A stretch of DNA of 64,000 nt from Patescibacteria group bacterium. Its GTDB lineage: Bacteria; Patescibacteriota; JABMPQ01. A program made the translations under genes and the position numbers. Under the pieces are notes generated by a model, which was given only the letters and a program-made list of their open reading frames with translations, was not told the origin of the DNA and made no database searches. Shown piece after piece: positions 14,450 through 55,989 of the stretch (position 1 is its first letter; each line of letters starts with the position of its first letter). The stretch spans positions 6,178 through 70,177 of the forward strand of contig JAHJQX010000014.1 in NCBI GenBank assembly GCA_018818965.1. Reading direction: 5' to 3'.

Positions 14450-15700
14450 ATGTCATCTACTACCGAAAAATTCATCACTACCAAAAAGGCCAGCCAAGCT
14501 CTGGTTGATCTTTCAGAACAAGAAATAAACAAAGTCCTTGGAGGCTTTGCTGAGCTTTTGTTAGCCAAGAAGAGCAATATCTTAGCTGCTAACAAGAAAG
14601 ATCTAGCTCAGATGGAAAAAGATGATTCTCGTTATGATCGGTTGCAATTAACAGACGAGAGAATAGAAGGAATTGCCAGCGATGTTAGGAATGTGGCCAG
14701 CTTGCCCTACCCGGTTGGGAAGATATTAGAAGAAAAAAAGCTACCAAACGGATTAGAACTTTCTAAAGTGAGCGTGCCGCTAGGGGTGATCGGCATGATT
14801 TACGAAGCGCGTCCCAATGTTACCTGCGATGTTTTTTCGCTTTGTTTTAAGTCTGGCAATGCTTGTGTGCTCAAGGGTGGCAAGGAAGCTCAGCATTCTA
14901 ATGAAATCTTTGTCGAAATTATCAAAGAAGTACTGCGACAGCATTCCATCGATGAGAACATTATTTGTCTTCTCTCTAACGATCGGCAAGAAACGGTGGC
15001 TATGCTTGAAGCTCACGGCCAGGTAGATGTTATTATTCCCCGTGGTGGTCAGAATTTGATAAATTTTGTCCGCGAGAGCTCAAAAATTCCCGTGATTGAA
15101 ACAGGAGCGGGGATTGTGCATACCTATTTCGATGTGAGCGGTGATTTAGCCAAAGGTCAGCGAATAATCCACAATGCCAAAACACGGCGGCCAAGTGTCT
15201 GCAATGCTCTCGACACACTGATAGTGCATCGGAACCGGCTAGGTGATTTACCACAACTAGTTAAGCAGCTGGCGGAGAAAAAAGTGGAAATCTTTGCTGA
15301 TGAGGAAGCTTATGAAGCACTAAGTAGCCAATATAATAATGACTTATTAAAAAAAGCAGATGCCAAGAGCTTCGGCACCGAGTTTTTGGCGTTTAAAATG
15401 TCGATTAAGACAGTAGTCAATGCCAAAGAGGCAGTTGAGCATATTGGCAAGTATAGTTCTCAGCATAGTGAGGCGATTATTGCTGAGAACAAAGCGGCAA
15501 TTGACTATTTTATTCAGCATGTGGACGCGGCGGCTGTCTACGCTAATACTTCCACTGCTTTTACTGACGGGGCACAATTTGGGCTGGGAGCCGAGATTGG
15601 TATTAGTACACAGAAGCTACACACGCGTGGCCCGATGGGGCTGAAAGAGCTGACTAGTTATAAGTGGGTGATAAGAGGGGAGGGGCAGGTGCGGGGGTAA
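14450..15700 (+). CDS. proA: Gamma-glutamyl phosphate reductase (glutamate-5-semialdehyde dehydrogenase)
   Basis: Aldehyde-dehydrogenase-family fold with ProA-specific [13 protein letters not shown] and catalytic Cys (SVCNALDTL). Confidence 0.85.
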
Positions 15701-15723
15701 ATATTATTAATGCTTTTTAGTCA

Positions 15724-15750
15724 AAACAGGCGATTATTTGCCTGTTTTTG
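15724..15750 (+). terminator. Intrinsic terminator after proA (AAACAGGC-gattattt-GCCTGTTT + T-run)
   Basis: 8-bp stem, T5 tail, 24 nt after the proA stop. Confidence 0.7.
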
Positions 15751-15820
15751 TATATTATTGCCTTTATTTAAGCCAAATAATTATTTTATTGAAGGAAATT
15801 AGGCAAATTTATCAAAAAAT

Positions 15821-15850
15821 ATTGACAAGATTTGACAAGTATGATAAGAT
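15821..15850 (+). promoter_or_regulatory. Near-consensus sigma70-type promoter TTGACA-N17-TAAGAT with tandem TTGACAAG boxes, facing the GC-rich islet
   Basis: TTGACA at 15822-15827 (and again 15832-15837), 17-nt spacer to TAAGAT at 15845-15850; AT-rich context. Confidence 0.45.
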
Positions 15851-15949
15851 GTGGCGTCACAACGAAAATAGTTATTGATCACACGTCAAAATTTGAAAAT
15901 TCTATAGCTCGAACTTCTAAGGTCTTAGAGGGATATTAGGAGAACGACT

Positions 15950-15963
15950 GGGAGAGAGTCAAC
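15950..15963. repeat. Direct repeat GGGAGAGAGTCAAC (left copy) flanking GC-rich islet 1
   Basis: Exact 14-mer also present at 19574-19587. Confidence 0.7.
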
Positions 15964-16354
15964 TAGCAGCAATGCTAGGAGTATAAATTATACTATCAAG
16001 CTCTCTTGTGGTCGCGAGAGAGTTTTTTTGTCTTCTCTGGAAAGGGGCGTTAGCGCTCTTCTCCAGGTAAGATAAAGCCCTGAACATTATAACTAAGCGG
16101 GTTCTTCCCTCATTGCGCTTTTTGCGGAGAGTGCAGCGGGAGAAGAATCCCGAGGCGAGGAGTGCCTCGAAAAAAACTTCGTAATACTCCGGGGAAGCAC
16201 CGGGGCGCGCTGAGGCAGCGCGTAAAATTGCCTAGCAAAATCACGAGCCAGTAAAGGCCCAGCCCTGCACGATGCGGGGTGGTTGGGAGCGACACTGACT
16301 GGCTGAGAATCTAGAGCCCCACGTGAATACGGGGCAATCAAGAGGAGCGAGAGA

Positions 16355-16816
16355 ATGTTTTCCGCGCTGATCAACGAGTTGAACGGTATCTGGGGTGGTG
16401 GTCTCGAGGCAGTGCTGGGGTTCGTCGGGCTGCTGTTGGCGGCGCCGGCGCTGTGGTGGTGGCTGCTGCCGCGCTATACGGCGGTGTGCTGCCACGACGG
16501 GAACCGGTGGTTGTCGGACTGCCCGGGGACGTGGAGCAAGGCCCGGGGCGTTGCCGGCAACGACCTGGCCCTCTGGGTCAAGGCGTACGCCGCGCAGGTG
16601 ACGACTGGGAAGTTTCTCCAGCCGCACCAGGCCCGTATCCCCGAGAACCCCGTCCCACGGCGGCTGAAGGTGGTCCTGTTCGGCGAGCAGCGCGGCGTGT
16701 ACTATATCGTCGGGATCAAGATCCTCGACGAGAAAATACTCTCCGAGAAGTCCGACCGAAGCAACACCCCGGTCGTCAACTTTGAGGACGAGGACGAGTA
16801 CCTTCCGCTCCGCTAA
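16355..16816 (+). CDS. Hypothetical protein with N-terminal TM helix (GC-rich islet 1)
   Basis: GAGGAG SD 8 nt upstream; hydrophobic segment LGFVGLLLAAPALWWWLL; high-GC codon usage. Confidence 0.45.
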   Translation: MFSALINELNGIWGGGLEAVLGFVGLLLAAPALWWWLLPRYTAVCCHDGNRWLSDCPGTWSKARGVAGNDLALWVKAYAAQVTTGKFLQPHQARIPENPVPRRLKVVLFGEQRGVYYIVGIKILDEKILSEKSDRSNTPVVNFEDEDEYLPLR

Positions 16817-17261
16817 CGAACCGCCTGCTCCCCCCCAGAGACGTTCGCCAGGCTGACACCCTGGTCGCAGTCAACTGTCCCCGGCGCACGCAGCTGCGTT
16901 GGGTCTACCTCCCCGCTCACCTGTGAGGTGTGAGCGACTACGGGAGCCTACCAAATCCTCATTGTTCTTTTGACCCTTCACCCGGAAGCGCACTATCAGA
17001 GTACGCTTCCCCTTCCAGAGGATAGAAATAAGCTTCTATTCTCTGGAATAGTCATGAGTTACGATTCGTGACTACAAAAAATAGAAAAGTAATCCCTGGG
17101 CTGATCTAGGGATTATTGGTGTACCAACTTCACTCTCTGATTTGCTCTCTAGAAAGCGCAAACCAGCCGTGAACTTGGCACAAGCCAAGTCGAACATTTT
17201 AATCTGAGAATCGAAACCGACAAACAAAGCGCCTATTAAAAGACGCGAACAGGAGAAACTG

Positions 17262-19544
17262 GTGGCTAGCATTACGAGACAGGGTCCGCAGTACCACGGC
17301 CAGAGTGTGGAAGACCTCCGCACTTGGGCAGTCATCGAACGGCTGCCCTGGCTGGTGGAGGCCCTCGGCTTGACGGCCGGGGCGATCTGTGGATCCTTGG
17401 AGGAGGCGCTGCGGCGCCAGGTATACGGCTTGGGTAGCGCCGACGAGCTGCCCGCTCCCATTGACTGGGAGCGTAACGGTATCATCATCTCCCCGCCGGG
17501 GACGGGCAAGGGCATGGCCTGCTTCGTGGAGGCACTTCTGCACTACGAGCGGGTCTACGTGCTCGTGCCCTCGGTGATCCAGGCGCACAAGCTTGAGGAG
17601 AGCTTGGACGTCTTGTTTCATCGGGATCTGGGTGGCTGTGCAACGAGTCAGCGCAAGGCGCGGGGTCTGATCCGGGTCATCACGACCGGCATCTTCCACC
17701 AACTGGTGGCGGATGAGGACTCACAGCTGTGGGAGGACGGCACGGTTCTGATCGTGGACGAGGCGCAGCGGATTCTGGAGAACGATCCGGAGACGGAGCT
17801 GATGATCGGCACCTGCGCCTCGCAAGGGGTGCCGGTGATGATCGTCTCGGCGACGATTGCTCCGGGGACGTTGCCTGAAGTCTACGGTCACGGCGCGAGC
17901 GAGCCGGCTCAGGTCTACAGCCTGGTCAAGAACATGCACCCGGTGGAGATCGAGGTCACCACTGGCCGCGAGATCACCCAGGTGCTGTCCGAGACCGAGG
18001 AGCTGCTCGCTGACGGTAAGACGACGCTGGTCTTCTGCGCCTCGCGGCGCGAGGTGGCGAGCGTGGCTGATCTGCTGGCTCAACTGGGTGGAGCGACGGT
18101 GCGTGTTACTGGCGCTCATCAGGTGGAGGAGCAGATCGCCGAGATCGAGTCCGCTCAGGCGACCGGTCTGCCGGTGTTCGTGGTGGCCACGCCGGGCACC
18201 ATGGACAGCTCGGTGACGGTGCCGGGACTCTCCTGCGTCGTCATCCAGGACATGCGTTACAGTGTGGACTGGAATAAGTTTGGCGTGATCGAGCGTCGGC
18301 ACGAGACGCTGCCGGTCAACCACATTGTCCAGATGATCCGCCGGGTGGGTCGCATTGCCCGCACGGATGGTCAGCGGGACAAAGTGATCGTGGTTTCGAG
18401 CTGTCCCCGCCCGGAGCTGATGGTGGAAACGCCCCAGTTCCAGCCGATTTCCGGCTGCTCGCCGCACACTCAGATCGAGAACCTCCTGCTGCGCGCCGTG
18501 CAGTTTGACATCCCCTTCGCGGATGTCCACGACTACATGGTTAGCAACTTCGCAGAGGAGCGGATCGAGAAGACGGTGGCGGCGTTGCTGGAGCACGGCA
18601 TGATTGAGCGGGTGGACGACCCTTCCGATCCCGACGGCTTCGAGCTGACGGACAAGGGAGAGTTAGTCATCTCGCTGCCCTTCGAGTATCGCTGGTCGCG
18701 GTTGATCGTGGAGGCGCCGGAGGAGCTGCAGCTGTGGCTCACGCTGGCGGCCGCCTGCGGTCATGTCCGGGACCTGGAGATGCACGAGGAGCAGTCACTC
18801 GACGTGGCTGGTCACCAGCGCTCCGAAGTGCTGCGCAAGATCGCGCTCATGGTCGAGTACCTCGGCCTGGAGCACGACCGCGAGCAGCGCGACGAGGCCG
18901 ACGAGCGGGGACTGTCGTTCCGACGGATGGAGCAGGCAGAGACGCTGTTCGATCTGGCAATGGAGGCCTTGGAGCTGGACTGGGATGTAGACGAGCTGGC
19001 GGTGCCCGAGGGCGAGGAGATGGAGACGCTGCTCTTAGAGATCGTCACCGGCGGGCTGCGGACGGGTTTGTACAAGCTGTACTTCCCGCATCGTGGCGAC
19101 CGTGGTGGTTGGTCTGAGCCGCGGCCTACTCCTGACCTGGACGGCCAGTTTCGGCGTTTCTTCGTCGATGACAACGGCCTGGCTCTCTCGCGGTACGCCG
19201 AGGGCGGGGTTTGCGCCGTTGTCGCCTCGCCGACCTGGTTCACGTCCAAGAACGGCGGCCCCTGCGCCAACCTGGACGACGTGACCATCGTGCCGAGCGA
19301 TCTGCTGCCGCAGCTGGTAGCGGACTTGGCCAAGCGCGAAGGTTGGTTCCAGGTGACCTTCGAGGAGGGCGAGTTCCGGGGCCAGACCAGGCTCGAGGCC
19401 CGCGGCGCCGACGGGTGGACGATCTACCTGCCCAGCCGGATGGACAACGAGCCGGAGGTGGGTGTGGCCTACTGGTGCTCCCCCGATCGTCAGATCGGCC
19501 GGGGCATTCAGACGGTCTGGATCCACTTCCCGGTCAACGGCTAG
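17262..19544 (+). CDS. SF2 DExH-box helicase, NS3/DEAH-like, with degenerate Walker A (GTG start)
   Basis: Motifs read by eye: I PPGTGKG (no canonical GK[ST]), Ia VLVPSV, II DEAQ, III SAT, IV-like LVFCASRREVASVADLL, V VVATPGTMDSSVTVPG, VI QMIRRVGRIAR. AGGAG 6 nt before GTG. About 350-aa C-terminal extension of unknown fold. Confidence 0.7.
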   Translation: MASITRQGPQYHGQSVEDLRTWAVIERLPWLVEALGLTAGAICGSLEEALRRQVYGLGSADELPAPIDWERNGIIISPPGTGKGMACFVEALLHYERVYVLVPSVIQAHKLEESLDVLFHRDLGGCATSQRKARGLIRVITTGIFHQLVADEDSQLWEDGTVLIVDEAQRILENDPETELMIGTCASQGVPVMIVSATIAPGTLPEVYGHGASEPAQVYSLVKNMHPVEIEVTTGREITQVLSETEELLADGKTTLVFCASRREVASVADLLAQLGGATVRVTGAHQVEEQIAEIESAQATGLPVFVVATPGTMDSSVTVPGLSCVVIQDMRYSVDWNKFGVIERRHETLPVNHIVQMIRRVGRIARTDGQRDKVIVVSSCPRPELMVETPQFQPISGCSPHTQIENLLLRAVQFDIPFADVHDYMVSNFAEERIEKTVAALLEHGMIERVDDPSDPDGFELTDKGELVISLPFEYRWSRLIVEAPEELQLWLTLAAACGHVRDLEMHEEQSLDVAGHQRSEVLRKIALMVEYLGLEHDREQRDEADERGLSFRRMEQAETLFDLAMEALELDWDVDELAVPEGEEMETLLLEIVTGGLRTGLYKLYFPHRGDRGGWSEPRPTPDLDGQFRRFFVDDNGLALSRYAEGGVCAVVASPTWFTSKNGGPCANLDDVTIVPSDLLPQLVADLAKREGWFQVTFEEGEFRGQTRLEARGADGWTIYLPSRMDNEPEVGVAYWCSPDRQIGRGIQTVWIHFPVNG

Positions 19545-19572
19545 CTCTTTGTTTCTACTCTCGGGGAGAGAG

Positions 19573-19605
19573 TCAACGCTCTTTCCCCGTTTTTTCCCAG
19601 CTTGG
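19573..19605 (+). terminator. Intrinsic terminator after helicase (GGGGAGAGAG-tcaacg-CTCTTTCCCC + GTTTTTT); includes the right direct-repeat copy
   Basis: 10-bp stem with one G-U pair, followed by a T6 run. Confidence 0.6.
19574..19587. repeat. Direct repeat GGGAGAGAGTCAAC (right copy) flanking GC-rich islet 1
   Basis: Exact 14-mer match to 15950-15963. Confidence 0.7.
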
Positions 19606-19902
19606 CAATATTAATTGCTGAGCTGAGAAGAACTTTGTAAATAAAGAAAATGTGACGATACTACTTAAGGTGTTGTTGGGATTCTAAAGCTAGGATAGTG
19701 TTCTTGCTCCTGCTTCTAGCGGGAACAAACCTCTTTCCCAGAGGAACACTGTGCTAATTTTGGTAGGGAATTGAACCTCTAACTCAGTTTCCATCATCTC
19801 GACAGCATTTTGGGTGGTATTTTTTATTTCCCCTTGCCTATTTTCTCAAACCACGTTATCATACCCCCAGACAAAAAAACTTTTGAAAGGAGACAATTTA
19901 TT

Positions 19903-31631: not shown

Positions 31632-31664
31632 TAAAAAAATCCTCGGAGGAAAATCCTGAGGATC
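31632..31664 (-). terminator. Intrinsic terminator for the GC-rich permease gene (ATCCTCAGG-attttcct-CCGAGGAT + T7 on minus strand)
   Basis: Hairpin plus A7 on plus strand (T7 on minus) immediately 3' of the minus-strand stop at 31682. Confidence 0.6.
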
Positions 31665-31681
31665 AAAGGTACGAAGGTGAG

Positions 31682-33130
31682 CTACAGTATGACGAAGCGC
31701 ACCGTCAGCCAGGCGAGGTAGGCGATGCAGGTCCAGTAGAGCCGCCACGAAGTGCGAATCCAGGGACCAGGCCCCACTCCCAGCGCACGGCTGATGTAGA
31801 AGTTGGGCAGATTTGCTGGCACCGTCAGGAGCCCACCAAATAGTGCGCCTTGGACCACAGCTGTTGCTAGCAGAGTTGCTGGACCAAGACCCAGCGATTT
31901 GATCAGGCTCATCGGGATTATGATGTAGACCCGGGAAGCCAGGGCGTTGTCGGCGAAGTGGCTGGTTACGGCGCTGAGGAAGAACATCATTAGCGCCAGA
32001 ACGTAGAGCGCGATCGCCTTTGGCATCATCACGGAGAGGACTAGAACTTTCTGCCCGATCCAGATGATCAGCGGTTCAGCTACCACTCCGATCAGCTCGA
32101 GCGCAGCCAGGAGGACGGCCAGGATCAGCGGTTGCCACCTGGCAGTGAAGGCTTCCTCTAGGGCGTGTTGATCGTCCTGGTCAACGTCGGCGTACTTGGC
32201 ATGGGCTAGCAGGTAGCTGTAGACGGCGGCGGCCGAGTCAGCTGCCCACAGAAGCCCTATCCAAACCTGACTTGGCTTGAAGATCGCGGCCAAGATGTGA
32301 GCGATGACGATGCTCACCAGGATGGCGAGCGGCTTGATGCTCTCGCGGCTCAGGCGAGGCTGGTTGTTGCTGAACTCCACATTCTTGCCGACATGCTGAT
32401 AGAAGCGGAAGGTGGTGAGCGTCACGTGCAGCACGCACCCGACTCCCACCCAGGCGATCAGGTCAGTGATCCCCCAGCCGAAGCTTGCTTCCAACTTGCT
32501 CCAGACGATCAGGATGGGGGGAGCGGCGAAAAAAGTGAGCCCACCACCGGAGCCGATGGTAGCGGCCAAACCAACGGCCACGCGTTTCTTGTCTTCCTCG
32601 CTGTCGATCCTCGTTTTAACGTAGTCGCAAAGGAAGACCGCTGCTGCTGGTTCACCGGTGAGTGAGGAGAGGAGGGAACCGCCAGCGATCACCAGGCGCA
32701 TATCCCCGATCCGCTCCAGGAAACCCATGATGGGGATCATGTGTCGAACAGCGATGTTGGCCGCTGACATGATGCCCAATAGAGTGAAGCACTCTCCCCA
32801 GGGGATGTGGAGGCTCTGCCCCCACCAGAGGATGGTGCCCCCAGCGGCGATCCCAACAGCGATTCCGGCCAGTTCTCCTTCGTTGGTGATGCGGTGGAAG
32901 AAGCCGAAGATGGGAAACTTGTACCACCATCGTGGCCCCCCACCGGCCAGAAACATATCAGTCCGGGCCAGACCGTTCATGGCCAGAATGGCGGCCAGGA
33001 GAATTGCTCCTCCCGCTACCAACTGACTGCCGTTTGAGGCCACTGTGGTCAAGAACCCCCCAAAAGCCATGGTGGCCAACCATGACTGCACGAATGCAGC
33101 CCGATACAAATTCTTTCTGCTCATCTTCAC
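31682..33130 (-). CDS. Polytopic ion/anion permease, ArsB/NhaD-like or related transporter (GC-rich islet 2)
   Basis: 482 aa with ~12 TM helices and Gly-rich motifs; codon usage high-GC, unlike neighbours. Confidence 0.45.
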   Translation of the reverse strand: MKMSRKNLYRAAFVQSWLATMAFGGFLTTVASNGSQLVAGGAILLAAILAMNGLARTDMFLAGGGPRWWYKFPIFGFFHRITNEGELAGIAVGIAAGGTILWWGQSLHIPWGECFTLLGIMSAANIAVRHMIPIMGFLERIGDMRLVIAGGSLLSSLTGEPAAAVFLCDYVKTRIDSEEDKKRVAVGLAATIGSGGGLTFFAAPPILIVWSKLEASFGWGITDLIAWVGVGCVLHVTLTTFRFYQHVGKNVEFSNNQPRLSRESIKPLAILVSIVIAHILAAIFKPSQVWIGLLWAADSAAAVYSYLLAHAKYADVDQDDQHALEEAFTARWQPLILAVLLAALELIGVVAEPLIIWIGQKVLVLSVMMPKAIALYVLALMMFFLSAVTSHFADNALASRVYIIIPMSLIKSLGLGPATLLATAVVQGALFGGLLTVPANLPNFYISRALGVGPGPWIRTSWRLYWTCIAYLAWLTVRFVIL

Positions 33131-33294
33131 ATTCTCCTGGAATGATGCCCTGAGTATGTGGGCGTATGGGTGGCGGAAACACCTTCTATATTGTTCCGCC
33201 CGAATTTAAAAAGATCAGGCCATTACAGTAAATTTGATCAGCCTAACCTATTTTGGGATAATAGTCAATGAATTATTTCGAGATTTTTAAGGTC

Positions 33295-41187: not shown

Positions 41188-41253
41188 GGTATAAAAAAAC
41201 GCAGTGATGAGTTATTCCAAGCGACTAGGAAGTCGGTAGAGACTCTTAACTGC

Positions 41254-41262
41254 GTGGTTGTG
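41254..41262. repeat. Direct repeat GTGGTTGTG (left copy) flanking GC-rich islet 4
   Basis: Exact 9-mer also at 42634-42642, at the opposite islet boundary. Confidence 0.5.
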
Positions 41263-41377
41263 CAAAAGGTTGTGGCAGGACGGCCGCCAGTCTCCGTCCA
41301 TTAGGAGGGTCTGGGTGGCAGACGTGGTACAGGGCTGGAGCTGCCCGGCCACAAGCTGGTTGAGCTGGGTTAGGGAG

Positions 41378-42622
41378 CTAGGCCCGGTACTGGGCGAGAC
41401 AGACGGTGGAAGCGATCGGTCCGCCGATGTTTAGGGAGATGCCGTTTTCACAGTTCGACACCTTCAGCTCTACCGGCACCTGACCGAGGATCTGCTGATG
41501 AACCCAGCCAGCTAGGGCGAGGCCGGTTGCGCTGATGGGATGTCCCTTGGCCATCAGCCCGCCACTGGTGTTGGTGGGCAAGTCGCTGTCGATCCCCATC
41601 ATGTGATCCACGAAGTAGGGCAGACCTTGCCCCGGCTCAGCCAGCCCAGCGATCTCCGCCGTCAGTGGCAGCATGATCGAGAAGCAGTCGTGGGTCTCTA
41701 GGACGCCGATGCACTCGGGCGGGATTTTCGACATCCGAAGGGCTTCCACGAAAGCCTTCTTAGCGCCCACCGGCTGCAGCACGTTGTCGCCGCGGGAGGC
41801 GATGGACAGGCCGTCTACGGCGTGTCCCCAGCCAGCCAGCACGGTAACGTCGTCCTTGGTGAGACCCAGCATGCTCAGCCCCTCTTCGTCGCAGACAACG
41901 AAGCGGCTGTAGCCGTCGGAGATCTGGGAACATTCCTCCAGCTTCAATGGCAGGTCTTCCCCCTCACCCGTTTCCCCGTCCTTCTGGAACAAGCGGTAGC
42001 TGGACAGTACTGACTCGACGGTGATGGGGTTTCTCGGCGTACGCATGTGGGCCAGCGGGTTGTAGGCGGCGTTGGCGTAGAGGTAGGGCGGCAGGATGGC
42101 CAGCTGCTCCTCGCTGATCCCGTACCTCTCCATGTACATGTTCATGATCCGCGCGAAGAGGTGAGGGAAGCTGAAAGGCGGGAAGCGATCATCCGGGTGA
42201 GCAGCCGTTCCCAGCATCTGGCCGATCTTGATCGAGTCGGTCTTGGGAGGCTTGCCGTCCTTTCCCGGCTTCTTGATGTTCATCTTCTCGACGCCAATGG
42301 CCAGGGCGACGTGGGTGTCGCCGCAGCGCACCGTTTTGGCAGCATCCAGCAGGGCGAGCCCGCCGCTGTCGCAGGCGTTCCCCACCCCCACGATGGGCAG
42401 ACTGGTGTAGGCTGGATCCATGGCGACTGCTGCCGCCAGCAGGTGCTGGTCGTTGAGCTGGGGTGCCAGCATGCCAGCCACACTGATGTAGCCGATAGCC
42501 GCTCGCTGCTCATCGTTGAGCCCCTCCCGGCCAGCATCGACCAACATCTCAAGTAGCTCGTAACCCTTCAGGTCGCCGAACATACTCTGCCCATATAGGG
42601 CCAAATACATTTTTCCGTCCAA
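41378..42622 (-). CDS. Thiolase-family protein (SCP-x/archaeal-type acetyl-CoA acetyltransferase-like), TTG start (GC-rich islet 4)
   Basis: VGNACDSGG (active-site Cys motif) and C-terminal NTSGGLMAKGHPISATG; AGGAGG SD 5 nt before TTG; high-GC codon usage. Confidence 0.7.
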   Translation of the reverse strand: MDGKMYLALYGQSMFGDLKGYELLEMLVDAGREGLNDEQRAAIGYISVAGMLAPQLNDQHLLAAAVAMDPAYTSLPIVGVGNACDSGGLALLDAAKTVRCGDTHVALAIGVEKMNIKKPGKDGKPPKTDSIKIGQMLGTAAHPDDRFPPFSFPHLFARIMNMYMERYGISEEQLAILPPYLYANAAYNPLAHMRTPRNPITVESVLSSYRLFQKDGETGEGEDLPLKLEECSQISDGYSRFVVCDEEGLSMLGLTKDDVTVLAGWGHAVDGLSIASRGDNVLQPVGAKKAFVEALRMSKIPPECIGVLETHDCFSIMLPLTAEIAGLAEPGQGLPYFVDHMMGIDSDLPTNTSGGLMAKGHPISATGLALAGWVHQQILGQVPVELKVSNCENGISLNIGGPIASTVCLAQYRA

Positions 42623-42633
42623 GGTTTCCTCCT

Positions 42634-42642
42634 GTGGTTGTG
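42634..42642. repeat. Direct repeat GTGGTTGTG (right copy) flanking GC-rich islet 4
   Basis: Exact 9-mer match to 41254-41262. Confidence 0.5.
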
Positions 42643-42699
42643 ATGGTACAGCAAAAACAGTCGTGTCCCCATTCTATGTTATCCATACTGCCGGTCAAT

Positions 42700-54570: not shown

Positions 54571-54655
54571 CCCGAGGGGGTTGAAAGGAGGAAAATTTAC
54601 CGAAGAGTGTTGTAAAGGGACAGATCGACAATGAGGAAGAGACAAGGAGACGAGG

Positions 54656-55453
54656 ATGAAGAGGGACGAGCGATTCAAGGCCCGGACAGATGCCGGAGTC
54701 ATCACGTTCTACGAAGACTTGAGGATGCTGGGAGCACTGCTCATCTATGGCGGACTCGACCGCGGGTTCGTGCTCAAGGTGGTTATGTTCCTGCTCACCG
54801 AGTTTCGCATCACCTTCGGCGAGCTGGCAGAGGTGTCAGAGGAGTTCCGGATCGGCGAGGACGAGGAACCGGAGTCTGCCAGGGAGACCGCCGAGGTCAG
54901 GACGGTGCACATGGGTGACACCGCGCCCTACCCGCCCGCCGGCGTCGAAGCTGCTGCTGAGGGTGATGCGGACGGTGGGCCGATCGCGAAGGTTCCCACC
55001 CAGCCGCTTCCCGACGAGCTGGACGGCGCCGGTGAGCAGGACACGCCCCCGGCCGGCATGAAACAGTGCGTGCACTGCCACGAGTACAAGATCCCGGCCG
55101 ACAAGTCGACCGTCGTCTGCTCGGGCTGCGAGGAGAAGCTGAAGGCGGAGTTCGACGGTGACGACGACGAGGACGAGGACAACGAGCCTGAAGTCGGAGA
55201 CGCCCCCCCGGAGGCCATCGTGACGTCCCCGCCCCCCGCCGAGGCCGCGACCGAGCTGGGCGCCGAGGATGATGACGACGACGAGGAGGGCTCTCCCGTC
55301 GCTACCCCGCCCGCCGAGCTCGAGCCCGCCGTGACCGACGAGGACGCCGGCCTGGAGCCCCCCGAGGAGATCGTGGTCGCGGACGCCGACGAGCCCGAGG
55401 GCACCTACGACCCGGTTGCCCAGAAGGGTCCCGGTGGCGGAACCGGCTGCTAG
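54656..55453 (+). CDS. Highly acidic protein with N-terminal ~70-aa domain and central CxxC...CxxC zinc-ribbon (GC-rich islet 5)
   Basis: AGGAG SD 6 nt upstream; CVHC...CSGC; long D/E/P/A low-complexity tracts; own terminator at 55515-55549. Confidence 0.5.
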   Translation: MKRDERFKARTDAGVITFYEDLRMLGALLIYGGLDRGFVLKVVMFLLTEFRITFGELAEVSEEFRIGEDEEPESARETAEVRTVHMGDTAPYPPAGVEAAAEGDADGGPIAKVPTQPLPDELDGAGEQDTPPAGMKQCVHCHEYKIPADKSTVVCSGCEEKLKAEFDGDDDEDEDNEPEVGDAPPEAIVTSPPPAEAATELGAEDDDDDEEGSPVATPPAELEPAVTDEDAGLEPPEEIVVADADEPEGTYDPVAQKGPGGGTGC

Positions 55454-55514
55454 CAGTCGCAACCTACCCCCCGAGCCATTTCTGGCTCACCGAACATCCC
55501 CAGGAGTGAACCAT

Positions 55515-55549
55515 CCCTGAATCCCACCGATTCTCAGGGATTTTTTTTT
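55515..55549 (+). terminator. Intrinsic terminator (CCCTGA-13nt-TCAGGG + T9)
   Basis: 6-bp stem followed by nine T residues, about 60 nt after the stop of 54656..55453. Confidence 0.65.
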
Positions 55550-55588
55550 GCTGCGCTTTCTTTCTCCATTACTAGCGAGCAGATGAAA

Positions 55589-55692: not shown

Positions 55693-55911
55693 ATGACTGG
55701 TCCGAACGGACCTGGGCCTCTACCCTCCAACTCTGGTAGGGAGCCGTCTGAGGGCAGAGAGACGATTGTGGAGTACACTCCTCTGACCCCAACCGGTCTC
55801 CCCCCCAGATGTGAAGGGGTGGACTGCGAGGCGTTCAGCATTCCCTGCCGTACCTCCCCTCCTCGAGAACCGACTTCTCCTCCCACGACCAAAAAAATCG
55901 ACCCAAAGTAG
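55693..55911 (+). CDS. Pro-rich small protein, 72 aa (GC-rich, just outside right repeat of islet 5)
   Basis: TAGGAGA SD 5 nt before ATG; competing antisense ORF 55572..55961 lacks an SD; coding status uncertain. Confidence 0.3.
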   Translation: MTGPNGPGPLPSNSGREPSEGRETIVEYTPLTPTGLPPRCEGVDCEAFSIPCRTSPPREPTSPPTTKKIDPK

Positions 55912-55989
55912 GTCGAAAATGAGAATCCCTGCCCCTTTTTGCCCTTCGCCATGGCCAGCAACTACTGCTCGGCCACTTTTTTACCATCT

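Follow-up and report, generated by a model that had tools for sequence, protein, structure and literature searches.

The gap between proA and rpsA in the genome of this tiny-celled Patescibacteria (Parcubacteria-group) bacterium is a lineage-specific insertion hotspot, and in the stretch of 64,000 nt that we analysed (the window) it is occupied by islet 1, a very recently acquired, horizontally transferred cassette of two genes, which encode a 153-aa membrane protein and a 760-aa divergent, cellular-type DEAH/RHA RNA helicase that is not NS3-like. From its genomic context we tentatively read the islet as an uncharacterised conflict module made up of an RNA helicase and a membrane protein, a reading which we consider possible but somewhat short of probable. 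Its features are as follows.

15723-15748, + strand: intrinsic terminator after proA (stem of 11 pairs and a T-run)
15822-15850, + strand: σ70-like promoter, TTGACA-17-TAAGAT with TG, 10/12 matches to consensus, preceded by tandem TTGACAagaTTTGACA
15950-15963, + strand: left copy of the 14-mer GGGAGAGAGTCAAC, within the AT-rich leader
15998-16031, + strand: terminator-like hairpin with a T7 run in the leader
16032-16354, + strand: GC-rich structured 5' untranslated part of the cassette (z = -3.8)
16355-16816, + strand: 153-aa protein of family F2 with an N-terminal TM helix at ~17-38 (GC3 88%)
16817-17261, + strand: structured 445-nt spacer between the genes (z = -6.7 on the + strand, -5.8 on the - strand)
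17262-19544, + strand: 760-aa DEAH/RHA-type helicase, GTG start with an SD-like AGGAG 7 nt upstream (GC3 84%)
19562-19595, + strand: intrinsic terminator of the helicase gene (12 pairs and T6; -25.6 kcal/mol, z = -3.6)
19657-19822, + strand: putative AT-rich, strand-specific structured element of ~165 nt at the right end of the insertion

When compared with the empty site in a related genome, the proA-rpsA gap carries the whole islet at positions 15701-19825 (4.1 kb). At the empty site (L022-L025) the proA stop codon is followed by 77 bp and then rpsA, with proA 84% identical, and homology to the window stops at ~15694-15699 and restarts at 19826; no target-site duplication was seen at the 15701/19825 ends. 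A sister genome (L021) has the same site filled with a different island of 6.9 kb, and hence this position is found empty, with other cargo, or with DNA of foreign composition, as is the case for genomic islands in a hotspot. The GC-rich insert of the original prediction is real and sharply bounded, as a block at ~16030-19590 with 58-72% GC versus ~41% in the host, and the GC3 of the cassette genes is 84-88% versus 37-44% in the flanking host genes, from which a very recent transfer follows. Among the relatives of the helicase, GC3 spans 36% to 88%. The window contains four GC-rich islets within its 64 kb. No recombinase, integrase or transposase was found alongside the islet, nor any integrase or transposase in a related locus, and a self-mobile element is therefore unsupported.

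The islet had been described as bracketed by a 14-bp direct repeat. There are indeed exactly two exact copies of GGGAGAGAGTCAAC in the window, at 15950-15963 and 19564-19577 (the latter had been placed at 19574-19587), but both sit ~250 bp inside the insertion ends, and the pattern is not reproduced in the sister genome L021, where the motif is present once only, an outcome that the original prediction had itself listed as refuting. Allowing up to two mismatches gave only the same two matches in the window and none in the other islets. At least two matches to the 14-mer were obtained in 7 of 100 shuffles, and the window has about eight pairs of exact direct repeats, independent of one another, that are 14 bp or longer and spaced within 4.2 kb; the repeat is compatible with chance, is weak evidence, and is not a marker of the insert ends. 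The left copy aligns with GGAGAGAGTATCAAT in the L021 leader and pairs with 16000-16008 in the MFE fold, a predicted pairing which may possibly act as an antiterminator, and the right copy is simply the 5' strand of the stem in the terminator hairpin behind the helicase gene. A discrete mobile cassette which is bounded by this repeat and recombines between the copies is therefore very improbable and largely refuted: an exact copy does lie at each edge of the GC-rich block, the left one roughly where the L021 leader homology fades, but the position and number of the copies and the role of the right copy as a terminator arm all speak against it, and neither the end repeats nor the recombinase of an integron-like or att-flanked cassette were found. 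It is extremely improbable that the islet is an assembly chimera, in which GC-rich reads of a different organism were wrongly joined to a low-GC contig, since in spite of the extreme compositional jump and the number of such islets in the window, the host genes on either side are intact and the joins sit exactly between them, stretches of AT-rich, host-like regulatory DNA alternate with the GC-rich genes, the independent assembly L021 holds a different island at the same site, and GC-rich helicase islands in lower-GC flanks recur in the independent assemblies L001, L002 and L004.

The 760-aa protein consists of a helical N-terminal region (1-70), RecA1 and RecA2 (~71-400), a winged-helix/helical-bundle region (~400-600) and an OB-like β-region (~605-757). 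It is an SF2 helicase with a degenerate Walker A as predicted, with every motif string quoted at the time present, tandem RecA-like domains, Pfam matches above the cut-offs (DEAD 4.3e-10, Helicase_C 5.3e-7) and motifs I-VI that are invariant in the family alignment. Its AF2 model (pLDDT 89) was matched by Foldseek over the whole length to HrpA (PDB 6zww), HrpB, DHX37 and DHX15/Prp43 with E-values of 1e-22 to 1e-26 and TM scores of ~0.6 over 690-780 columns, while the profile search against the PDB gave HrpA at 2e-12 and HrpB at 8e-10, with the alignment to HrpA extending through the winged-helix motif LTxxGxxxxxLP. Judged from the modelled structure, the ~350-aa C-terminal extension that had been called novel is the canonical DEAH/RHA auxiliary module of winged-helix, helical-bundle (ratchet) and OB domains. 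The protein was not matched by the HA2 and OB_NTP_bind models of Pfam or, at E ≤ 0.01, by any NCBIfam family including those for HrpA and HrpB, and with only 12-17% identity to HrpA/HrpB and its island context it does not qualify as their orthologue. The search of PADLOC-DB 2.0 matched no defence-system model beyond weak and partial similarity to helicase cores (DinG 4e-5, BrxHI 8e-4).

The Walker A motif reads SPPGTGKG, in which PPGTGK is invariant across the family. In every member of the clade the lysine is followed by G, A or N and not by the S or T of GxxxxGK[ST], whereas the next-nearest (outgroup) helicases retain GKS, making GK[G/A/N] clade-specific. Motif II is DEAQ instead of D-E-x-H in the window protein and in most of the clade, with D166, E167 and Q169 invariant among 25 sequences, and differs in the distant members P0158 (DEAH) and P0160 (DECQ). 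Other residues invariant in the 25 sequences are K83, S196-A197-T198, Q357, R361, G363-R364 and R367, and this invariance of the catalytic motifs points to a functional NTPase maintained by purifying selection, although the missing Walker A hydroxyl could mean that its activity is altered or weak. The clade comprises 28 clusters at 90% identity in 5.8 billion proteins, with only 13 matches below 1e-30 among 1.84 billion representatives, and the GK[G/A/N] Walker A and DEAQ appear to be fixed traits of this very small, sharply separated Patescibacteria clade of helicases.

The 153-aa transmembrane protein also proved to be real: F2 has one hydrophobic N-terminal helix in the hydropathy plot, and its homologues (nine clusters, 52-59% identity) share a soluble domain with conserved AVCxHDG, WS and RGxY motifs and an acidic tail, FEExDExLPL. 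F2 had no match in Pfam, NCBIfam, PADLOC or PHROG, and no fold match was found with its AF2 model (pLDDT 69). It adjoins the helicase in the window, L020 and L010, is located near it in L012 and L014, and adjoins a different, HA2-type DEAH helicase in L017. Eleven of the 12 helicase loci having upstream sequence contain F2, F5 (TM-SAVED) or F6, all of them N-terminally hydrophobic, and these are three interchangeable small TM proteins accompanying the helicase. The predicted pairing of a helicase with a small membrane protein therefore stands, with F2 as a conserved partner on horizontally acquired DNA, and it is the adjacency of the genes which suggests that the two may be coupled physically or functionally.

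The promoter is present at 15822-15850 as predicted, but while it was thought to be a host promoter facing the islet, it is situated 5' of the islet in the same orientation, reads into the islet and belongs to the inserted DNA itself. Homology to L021 covers about 170 bp of the promoter and leader, an AT-rich region which there precedes different cargo, and the TTGACAnnnTTTGACA motif, which is unique within the window, is shared with L021 (6908-6923). The hairpin at 15998-16031 could together with 15951-15959 form an attenuator, but its function is uncertain because the hairpin is not conserved in L021. In a structure scan of the entire window, the segment 15991-16170 ranked third out of 2,133 scan windows. 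The 445-bp region earlier described as a hairpin-rich leader is strongly structured, with four near-perfect hairpins in succession at 16984-17116, within a patch of lower GC; as the structure is present on both strands, these are DNA-symmetric palindromes, and no pseudogene remnant was detected in the spacer. The highest rank in the scan was for the putative element at 19657-19822, with a 26-bp outer stem including ~9 G.U pairs and a predicted fold of -71.6 kcal/mol (z = -7.0) on the + strand and -35.3 kcal/mol (z = -0.8) on the - strand; it had no Rfam match, and no similar sequence was present in any locus compared.

The relatives of the helicase are encoded on variable islands which are placed between core genes, beside a host TrmB-type regulator, are compositionally foreign in their hosts, and have a hypervariable gene content that is shuffled among loci. 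These islands include genes for TM-SAVED (SAVED NCBIfam 1.2e-11, PADLOC SAVED_TM 1.8e-17), Csx3 (2.5e-17), Csx15-like (1.7e-11) and Csx16-like proteins (3e-8, with Pfam Cas_VVA1548 above the gathering threshold) and RtcB/LigT, with CARF/SAVED sensor domains in L001, L016, L009, L005 and L012, and LigT and RtcB immediately downstream of the helicase in L014. The window itself has no SAVED or Csx immune-signalling domains, and no CARF/SAVED sensor domain was found in its cassette when F2 was compared with Pfam, NCBIfam and PADLOC. No Cas10 or CD-NTase cyclase was present among the genes called, or in the Pfam lists, up to 10 kb to either side in L001, L002, L004, L012/L026, L014 and L017, so a cyclic-nucleotide pathway would be incomplete at these loci; CRISPR arrays, cas genes and nuclease effectors were not seen within ±10 kb of the loci, phage genes and PHROG signal were absent from the related loci, and replication or conjugation genes were not found in the islands. 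The enrichment of SAVED, Csx3, Csx15 and Csx16 in the islands of the relatives makes "uncharacterised defence-like/conflict module" a reasonable label, and thus the first part of the "defence or mobile module" proposed originally is retained, while the second is not, there being no recombinase.

If the islet is such a conflict module, the helicase would be an RNA-dependent NTPase, which would load on single-stranded RNA, translocate 3'→5' through a closed RNA tunnel, and thereby detect or remodel some specific RNA or RNP that is foreign or damaged, with the membrane-anchored F2 as its putative effector or anchor. Together they would most likely be defensive, of the abortive-infection type, and the module may be exchanged among Patescibacteria by recombination at conserved flanks and not via a site-specific mechanism using the 14-mer.

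Two other readings of these neighbourhoods need to be weighed. We consider it unlikely that the genes are counter-defence and RNA-repair cargo of (or derived from) mobile DNA, where type III CRISPR or CBASS signalling would be countered by ring nucleases, SAVED-type binders and a 2H phosphoesterase, RtcB would repair RNase damage, and the helicase would strip effector complexes or remodel cleaved RNA. Csx3, Csx15 and Csx16 have been described as ring nucleases or cOA-binding modules, enzymes of a kind also present in viruses and plasmids (PMC13148439; bioRxiv 10.1101/2024.09.24.614671), and the position of LigT and RtcB directly 3' of the helicase in L014, the lack of a cyclase and the foreign composition of the islands are all consistent with this; however, genes for integrase, replication, conjugation or phage functions are lacking, the islands lie between core genes beside the host regulator, SAVED and F6 are membrane-anchored and effector-like and not soluble sponges, and the ring-nuclease genes are absent from the window copy. 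Nor is it a likely reading that the helicase is an HrpA/HrpB-like remodeller of, for instance, structured or stalled RNAs, tethered at the membrane by F2 in a niche-adaptive, accessory RNA metabolism free of genetic conflict. HrpA and HrpB, which function in RNA processing and stress tolerance (PMC8325345), are the nearest solved relatives by profile, no RNA segments in the window are more structured than the untranslated regions of the islet, and the RtcB and LigT neighbours are consistent with RNA repair, but the patchy distribution of so few clusters, the shuffled neighbourhoods, the recurrent company of SAVED and Csx domains and the location in a hotspot which a close relative has unoccupied are typical of conflict genes and not of housekeeping genes.

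A further-reaching form of the conflict-module reading is that the helicase and the interchangeable F2, F5 and F6 constitute an undescribed, Patescibacteria-specific immune system, in which an RNA sensor activates a membrane effector directly, with neither CRISPR nor a CD-NTase to generate a signal; this is decidedly doubtful. If true, the RNA sensor would be a DEAH/RHA helicase whose P-loop has been remodelled, with a logic like that of RIG-I-like receptors, and the strongly structured RNAs from the untranslated parts of the cassette, among them the strand-specific 165-nt 3' element, would act in regulation or in self/non-self discrimination.

Of the known systems, HrpA and HrpB of E. coli (PDB 6zww, 6eud) are the best profile matches among solved structures and share with the window helicase the two RecA domains, the RecA2 β-hairpin region, the winged-helix, helical-bundle/ratchet and OB domains and conserved motifs Ia, Ib, III, V and VI. 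They differ in their low sequence identity, in having GK[ST] where the window protein has GKG, and in motif II (DEAQ in the window), while the window helicase has its own conserved 70-aa N-terminal region, lacks the large C-terminal region of HrpA, and is located in variable islands with small TM proteins, whereas HrpA and HrpB are stand-alone core genes. The structural match is equally good for the eukaryotic DEAH-box helicases Prp43/DHX15, DHX37/Dhr1 and Prp2/Prp16/Prp22, with E-values of 1e-21 to 1e-26 and TM scores of ~0.6. These enzymes need small G-patch proteins as cofactors, to which a small partner reserved for the window helicase may be analogous; they differ in that the 153-aa family has no G-patch or Pfam domain and that the window protein is bacterial with a variant P-loop.

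The bacterial DEAH/RHA helicases described (HrpA, HrpB and Z5898) are involved in RNA processing and stress responses and not in defence (PMC8325345), and the Z5898-like proteins, the third recognised bacterial subfamily, are encoded on horizontally acquired islands (PMC8325345, PMC3681947). Compared by description only, Z5898 (E. coli O157, O-island 172) resembles the window protein as a DEAH/RHA helicase on such an island and differs in its reported role, which is motility regulation. We know of no TM or SAVED partners of Z5898. With regard to the cOA modules of type III CRISPR and CBASS (TM-SAVED, Csx3/Crn3, Csx15 and Csx16), the flanking proteins of the relatives match these above curated cut-offs, and the combination of TM and sensor domains is an architecture typical of membrane effectors; the examined loci differ in having no Cas10, CD-NTase, CRISPR array or cas genes, the window cassette is without their domains, and to our knowledge no DEAH/RHA helicase has been described as part of cOA-signalling systems. 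Finally, viral NS3, NPH-II and potyviral CI have the SF2 DExH core in common with the window helicase, but the match is weaker and restricted to this core (E ~1e-13, TM 0.3-0.43), contrary to the NS3-like assignment made originally, and the best viral structural matches are the HrpA-like DEAH/RHA proteins of giant viruses.

Comparison with relatives placed the ends of islet 1, a GC-rich two-gene cassette on the + strand with proB-proC-proA to its left and rpsA-pfk to its right. The source names of identical proteins put the host in the Patescibacteria/Parcubacteria group. In the related loci L022–L025 (ProA 84% identical) the site is empty, with proA followed by 77 bp and then rpsA. The homology of the window to these loci ends at the proA stop codon and restarts at 19826, and the insertion therefore covers 15701–19825, about 4.1 kb, spanning AT-rich regulatory DNA on either side of the GC-rich core. 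The true junctions (15701 and 19825) show no sign of a target duplication. The features of the region are:

15701–19825: insertion between proA and rpsA
15822–15850: promoter-like site
15950–15963, + strand: left copy of the 14-mer GGGAGAGAGTCAAC
16355–16816, + strand: 153-aa transmembrane (TM) protein, family F2
16984–17116: four consecutive near-perfect hairpins, strand-symmetric, in the spacer between the two genes
17262–19544, + strand: 760-aa helicase
19564–19577, + strand: right copy of the 14-mer
19657–19822, + strand: 165-nt AT-rich element, candidate new structured RNA

The original prediction had taken the 14-mer as bracketing the insert. It is indeed present as two exact copies, although the second starts 10 nt from where it had been placed, and both lie about 250 bp inside the true insertion ends. 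The left copy belongs to a lineage-conserved leader, with GGAGAGAGTATCAAT as its counterpart in L021, a related locus with a different island at the same site, and the L021 cargo does not end in another copy. In the intrinsic terminator of the helicase gene (CGGGGAGAGAGTCAACGCTCTTTCCCCG followed by T6), the right copy supplies the 5' arm. At least two matches to the 14-mer were found in 7 of 100 shuffles, the window has about eight independent cases of an exact direct repeat that is 14 bp or longer with a spacing within 4.2 kb, and none of its other islets contains the 14-mer. The check which the prediction itself had proposed thus found the pattern missing in relatives, and hence the idea of a bracketed insert fails; the single copy in L021, the 250-bp offset and the chance-level statistics also rule out an att site or cassette boundary, and we rejected the reading as a 14-mer-bounded mobile cassette. 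The repeat is best explained as a chance coincidence of two purine-rich hairpin arms.

The island of L021 (ProA 83%) is 6.9 kb long. One of its genes encodes an uncharacterised protein of 792 aa and another a divergent regulator of the TrmB type, and three more are GC-rich and have no Pfam match. Approximately 170 bp of promoter and leader in the window (TTGACAagaTTTGACA...TATGAT; TAGAGGgATATT; GGAGAGAGT) are homologous to the DNA preceding the GC-rich cargo of L021, and the predicted promoter-like site was confirmed, with 10/12 matches plus TG. Given the empty site in L022–L025, and the other cargo behind a homologous leader in L021, the proA-rpsA site is an insertion hotspot in which promoter and leader are conserved and the cargo is swappable, showing a route by which reduced genomes take up foreign genes. 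Variable GC-rich islands repeatedly have at their edge a convergent gene pair, for an uncharacterised protein of 700–900 aa and a regulator of the TrmB family (L002 2062–5738 and 17995–20932, L004 4485–7449, L021 3605–6778, L017 16667–17311), and the L002 island is bracketed by two copies. The window has the promoter associated with this pair and lacks the pair itself.

The GC-rich block between the 14-mer copies was as described, with sharp edges and 58–72% GC against a background of about 41%. The helicase gene has a third-codon-position GC (GC3) of 84% and the F2 gene one of 88%, versus 37–44% in flanking host genes, a gap which indicates that the DNA was transferred very recently, and has not ameliorated since, from a donor with approximately 62–65% GC. 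Among relatives of the helicase, GC3 varies between 36% and 88%, and most exceed their own flanks in GC. Other readings were discounted: an rRNA or other known RNA gene as the cause of the block, as the sole Rfam match in the window is a tRNA at 1–71; pseudogene remnants in the three spacers, where tblastn with all locus ORFs gave only noise; and a phage origin, for which there was no relevant PHROG match and the sole IMG/VR match was a fragment with 33% identity across 112 residues. Islet 1 is a two-gene cassette that reached a hotspot by recent horizontal transfer. Three further islets (57–77% GC, GC3 74–85%) contain one gene each, unrelated to those of the cassette:

31650–33150, − strand gene: 482-aa Na+/H+-antiporter-like membrane protein
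41200–42650, − strand gene: 414-aa thiolase-like protein
54600–55550 (and 55700–55950), + strand gene: 265-aa very acidic protein with CxxC...CxxC

Altogether, some 12% of the window seems to have been imported recently from donors rich in GC.

Scanning 2,133 windows with a correction for GC showed that the top structured segments of the 64 kb were all non-coding parts of islet 1. A possible terminator/antiterminator pair in the leader has the left 14-mer as antiterminator arm, a pairing not conserved in L021, and the 445-nt spacer upstream of the helicase is structured as predicted (z = -6.7, folding stability relative to shuffled sequence). The element with which the insertion ends exactly on the right folds on the + strand alone (z = -7.0, versus -0.8 on the − strand), with a 26-bp G.U-rich outer stem and many G.U pairs; it matches no Rfam family, nothing similar to it occurs in the fetched loci, and it is a candidate for a new structured RNA. 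While the region upstream of the helicase is structured in 10/11 loci (z of -5 to -9), random 280-nt windows from the same Patescibacteria loci have a mean z of -2.7 (sd 2.2, minimum -7.5; dinucleotide shuffles). As the background is itself shifted and the enrichment modest, we did not accept a structured leader before the helicase as a conserved feature, and its recurrence is a lead only. Intergenic regions of the helicase loci contain unusually long perfect hairpins of 12–20 bp. Elsewhere in the window, two copies of a perfect palindrome of 22 nt, AAATGTTCCACGTGGAACATTT, lie 44 bp from each other (883–904 and 927–948), with a degenerate third copy at 109–130 near the tRNA-Ala gene (1–71), an arrangement resembling operator sites.

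Both predicted reading frames and all quoted motif strings were present, the helicase having a GTG startcodon with AGGAG 7 nt upstream. With regard to its class, the prediction had seen an NS3-like helicase with a novel C-terminal extension of 350 aa, and neither reading survived the structure search. An AlphaFold2 model based on 25 family members (pLDDT 89.4, pTM 0.86) was aligned by Foldseek against the PDB over 690–780 columns, i.e. the full protein, with DHX37, E. coli HrpA, DHX15/Prp43, HrpB and Prp2/16/22 as matches (E 1e-21 to 1e-26, TM ~0.6), whereas NS3, NPH-II and potyviral CI reached only ~1e-13 with a TM of 0.3–0.43; among viral models, giant-virus HrpA-like proteins came top. The solved relatives matched best by the family profile were HrpA (2e-12) and HrpB (8e-10), with the alignment passing through the winged-helix motif. 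These whole-length fold and profile matches point to a DEAH/RHA-type protein, in which the modelled C-terminal 350 aa form a canonical winged-helix/ratchet/OB module.

The family is tiny, with 28 clusters at 90% identity among 5.8 billion proteins, and searching 1.84 billion representatives with a profile gave 13 matches below 1e-30, with the next following after a gap at 2e-27. An exact-sequence look-up of P0001, the JGI gene call for the window helicase, returned no record. The predicted non-canonical Walker A motif proved to be a property of the whole clade: PPGTGK is invariant in the alignment, and the next residue is G, A or N (GKN in two distant members) and never S or T, whereas GKS is retained by the closest helicases outside the clade. 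Both the loss of the Walker A hydroxyl and the DEAQ form of motif II are therefore derived characters that are fixed in this DEAH/RHA-fold clade. Since the remaining catalytic residues are all kept (invariant D166-E167, Q169-R170, S196-A197-T198, Q357, R361, G363-R364 and R367), the sequences favour an NTPase that is unusual but functional over one in decay, and the replaced Ser/Thr amid intact motifs offers a directly testable natural experiment in P-loop chemistry.

The 153-aa protein has homologues in nine clusters (52–59% identity), with an N-terminal hydrophobic helix, invariant AVCxHDG, WS and RGxY motifs and an acidic tail. It is encoded immediately upstream of the helicase in two relatives (L020 and L010) and nearby in L012 and L014, and is a conserved membrane-anchored partner of the helicase. 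In L017 (7978–9996) F2 adjoins a different, canonical HA2-containing DEAH helicase of 672 aa, and in L019 (2327–6015) two uncharacterised proteins of 610 and 519 aa, the former of which is not a hidden helicase, as the helicase profile gave no match. F2 was recognised by none of the Pfam, NCBIfam, PADLOC and PHROG libraries, and its model (pLDDT 69) had no PDB match at E < 0.1. A G-patch-like cofactor motif, prompted by the string WGGGLEAVLG, was rejected with 0/11 members matching in Pfam even at E ≤ 10, and hhalign found no kinship to families F4, F5, F6, F10, F43 or F44.

Gene order around the helicase is shuffled between loci, and at least one TM protein (F2, F5 or F6) is present in 11 of the 12 loci with upstream sequence. 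The recurrent neighbours include:

F5: N-terminally hydrophobic SAVED protein (Pfam 1.6e-7, NCBIfam 1.2e-11, PADLOC SAVED_TM 1.8e-17)
F6: TM N-terminus in common with F5 (hhalign, 93.7% probability)
F10: Csx15 domain (1.7e-11)
F44: Csx16/Cas_VVA1548 domain
Csx3-domain protein (2.5e-17)
F43: sigma-factor-like protein

Csx3, Csx15 and Csx16 have been described in type III CRISPR signalling, as ring nucleases or as modules that bind cOA (PMC13148439; bioRxiv 10.1101/2024.09.24.614671; PMC13462974). The helicase relatives thus sit amid ring-nuclease domains and sensor domains for cyclic oligoadenylate. However, none of the loci showed a cyclase, a cas gene, a CRISPR array, an integrase or a phage gene. 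In L014 (1586–4296, 10621–12745) a MoxR AAA ATPase and a VWA protein are upstream of the helicase, and a LigT-type 2H phosphoesterase and an RtcB RNA ligase immediately downstream, giving an RNA-repair flavour. L012 (12641–16279, the same as L026 12674–16312) encodes a 1,212-aa class I aminoacyl-tRNA synthetase (Pfam tRNA-synt_1) with a histidine-phosphatase domain (His_Phos_1) inserted at residues 539–698.

Of the predicted uncharacterised defence or mobile module, the context in relatives leaves a candidate conflict module, in which the helicase would act as an RNA-dependent motor or sensor, and the TM protein as its effector or anchor. We consider defence the most likely role, followed by counter-defence or RNA repair, and then by a plain accessory gene of RNA metabolism. 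Patescibacteria (CPR) have tiny genomes; to our knowledge they mostly lack CRISPR, and how they handle phages and host-derived stress is little understood. A horizontally exchanged DEAH/RHA clade with small TM partners, often near cOA-sensor or ring-nuclease domains, would open up the conflict biology of these bacteria, and would add to the few roles so far assigned to bacterial DEAH/RHA helicases. We put it forward as a DEAH/RHA helicase subfamily that is a candidate new system. Without an NCBIfam match and at an identity of only 12–17%, the window helicase is not an orthologue of HrpA or HrpB, although it has its fold in common with both.
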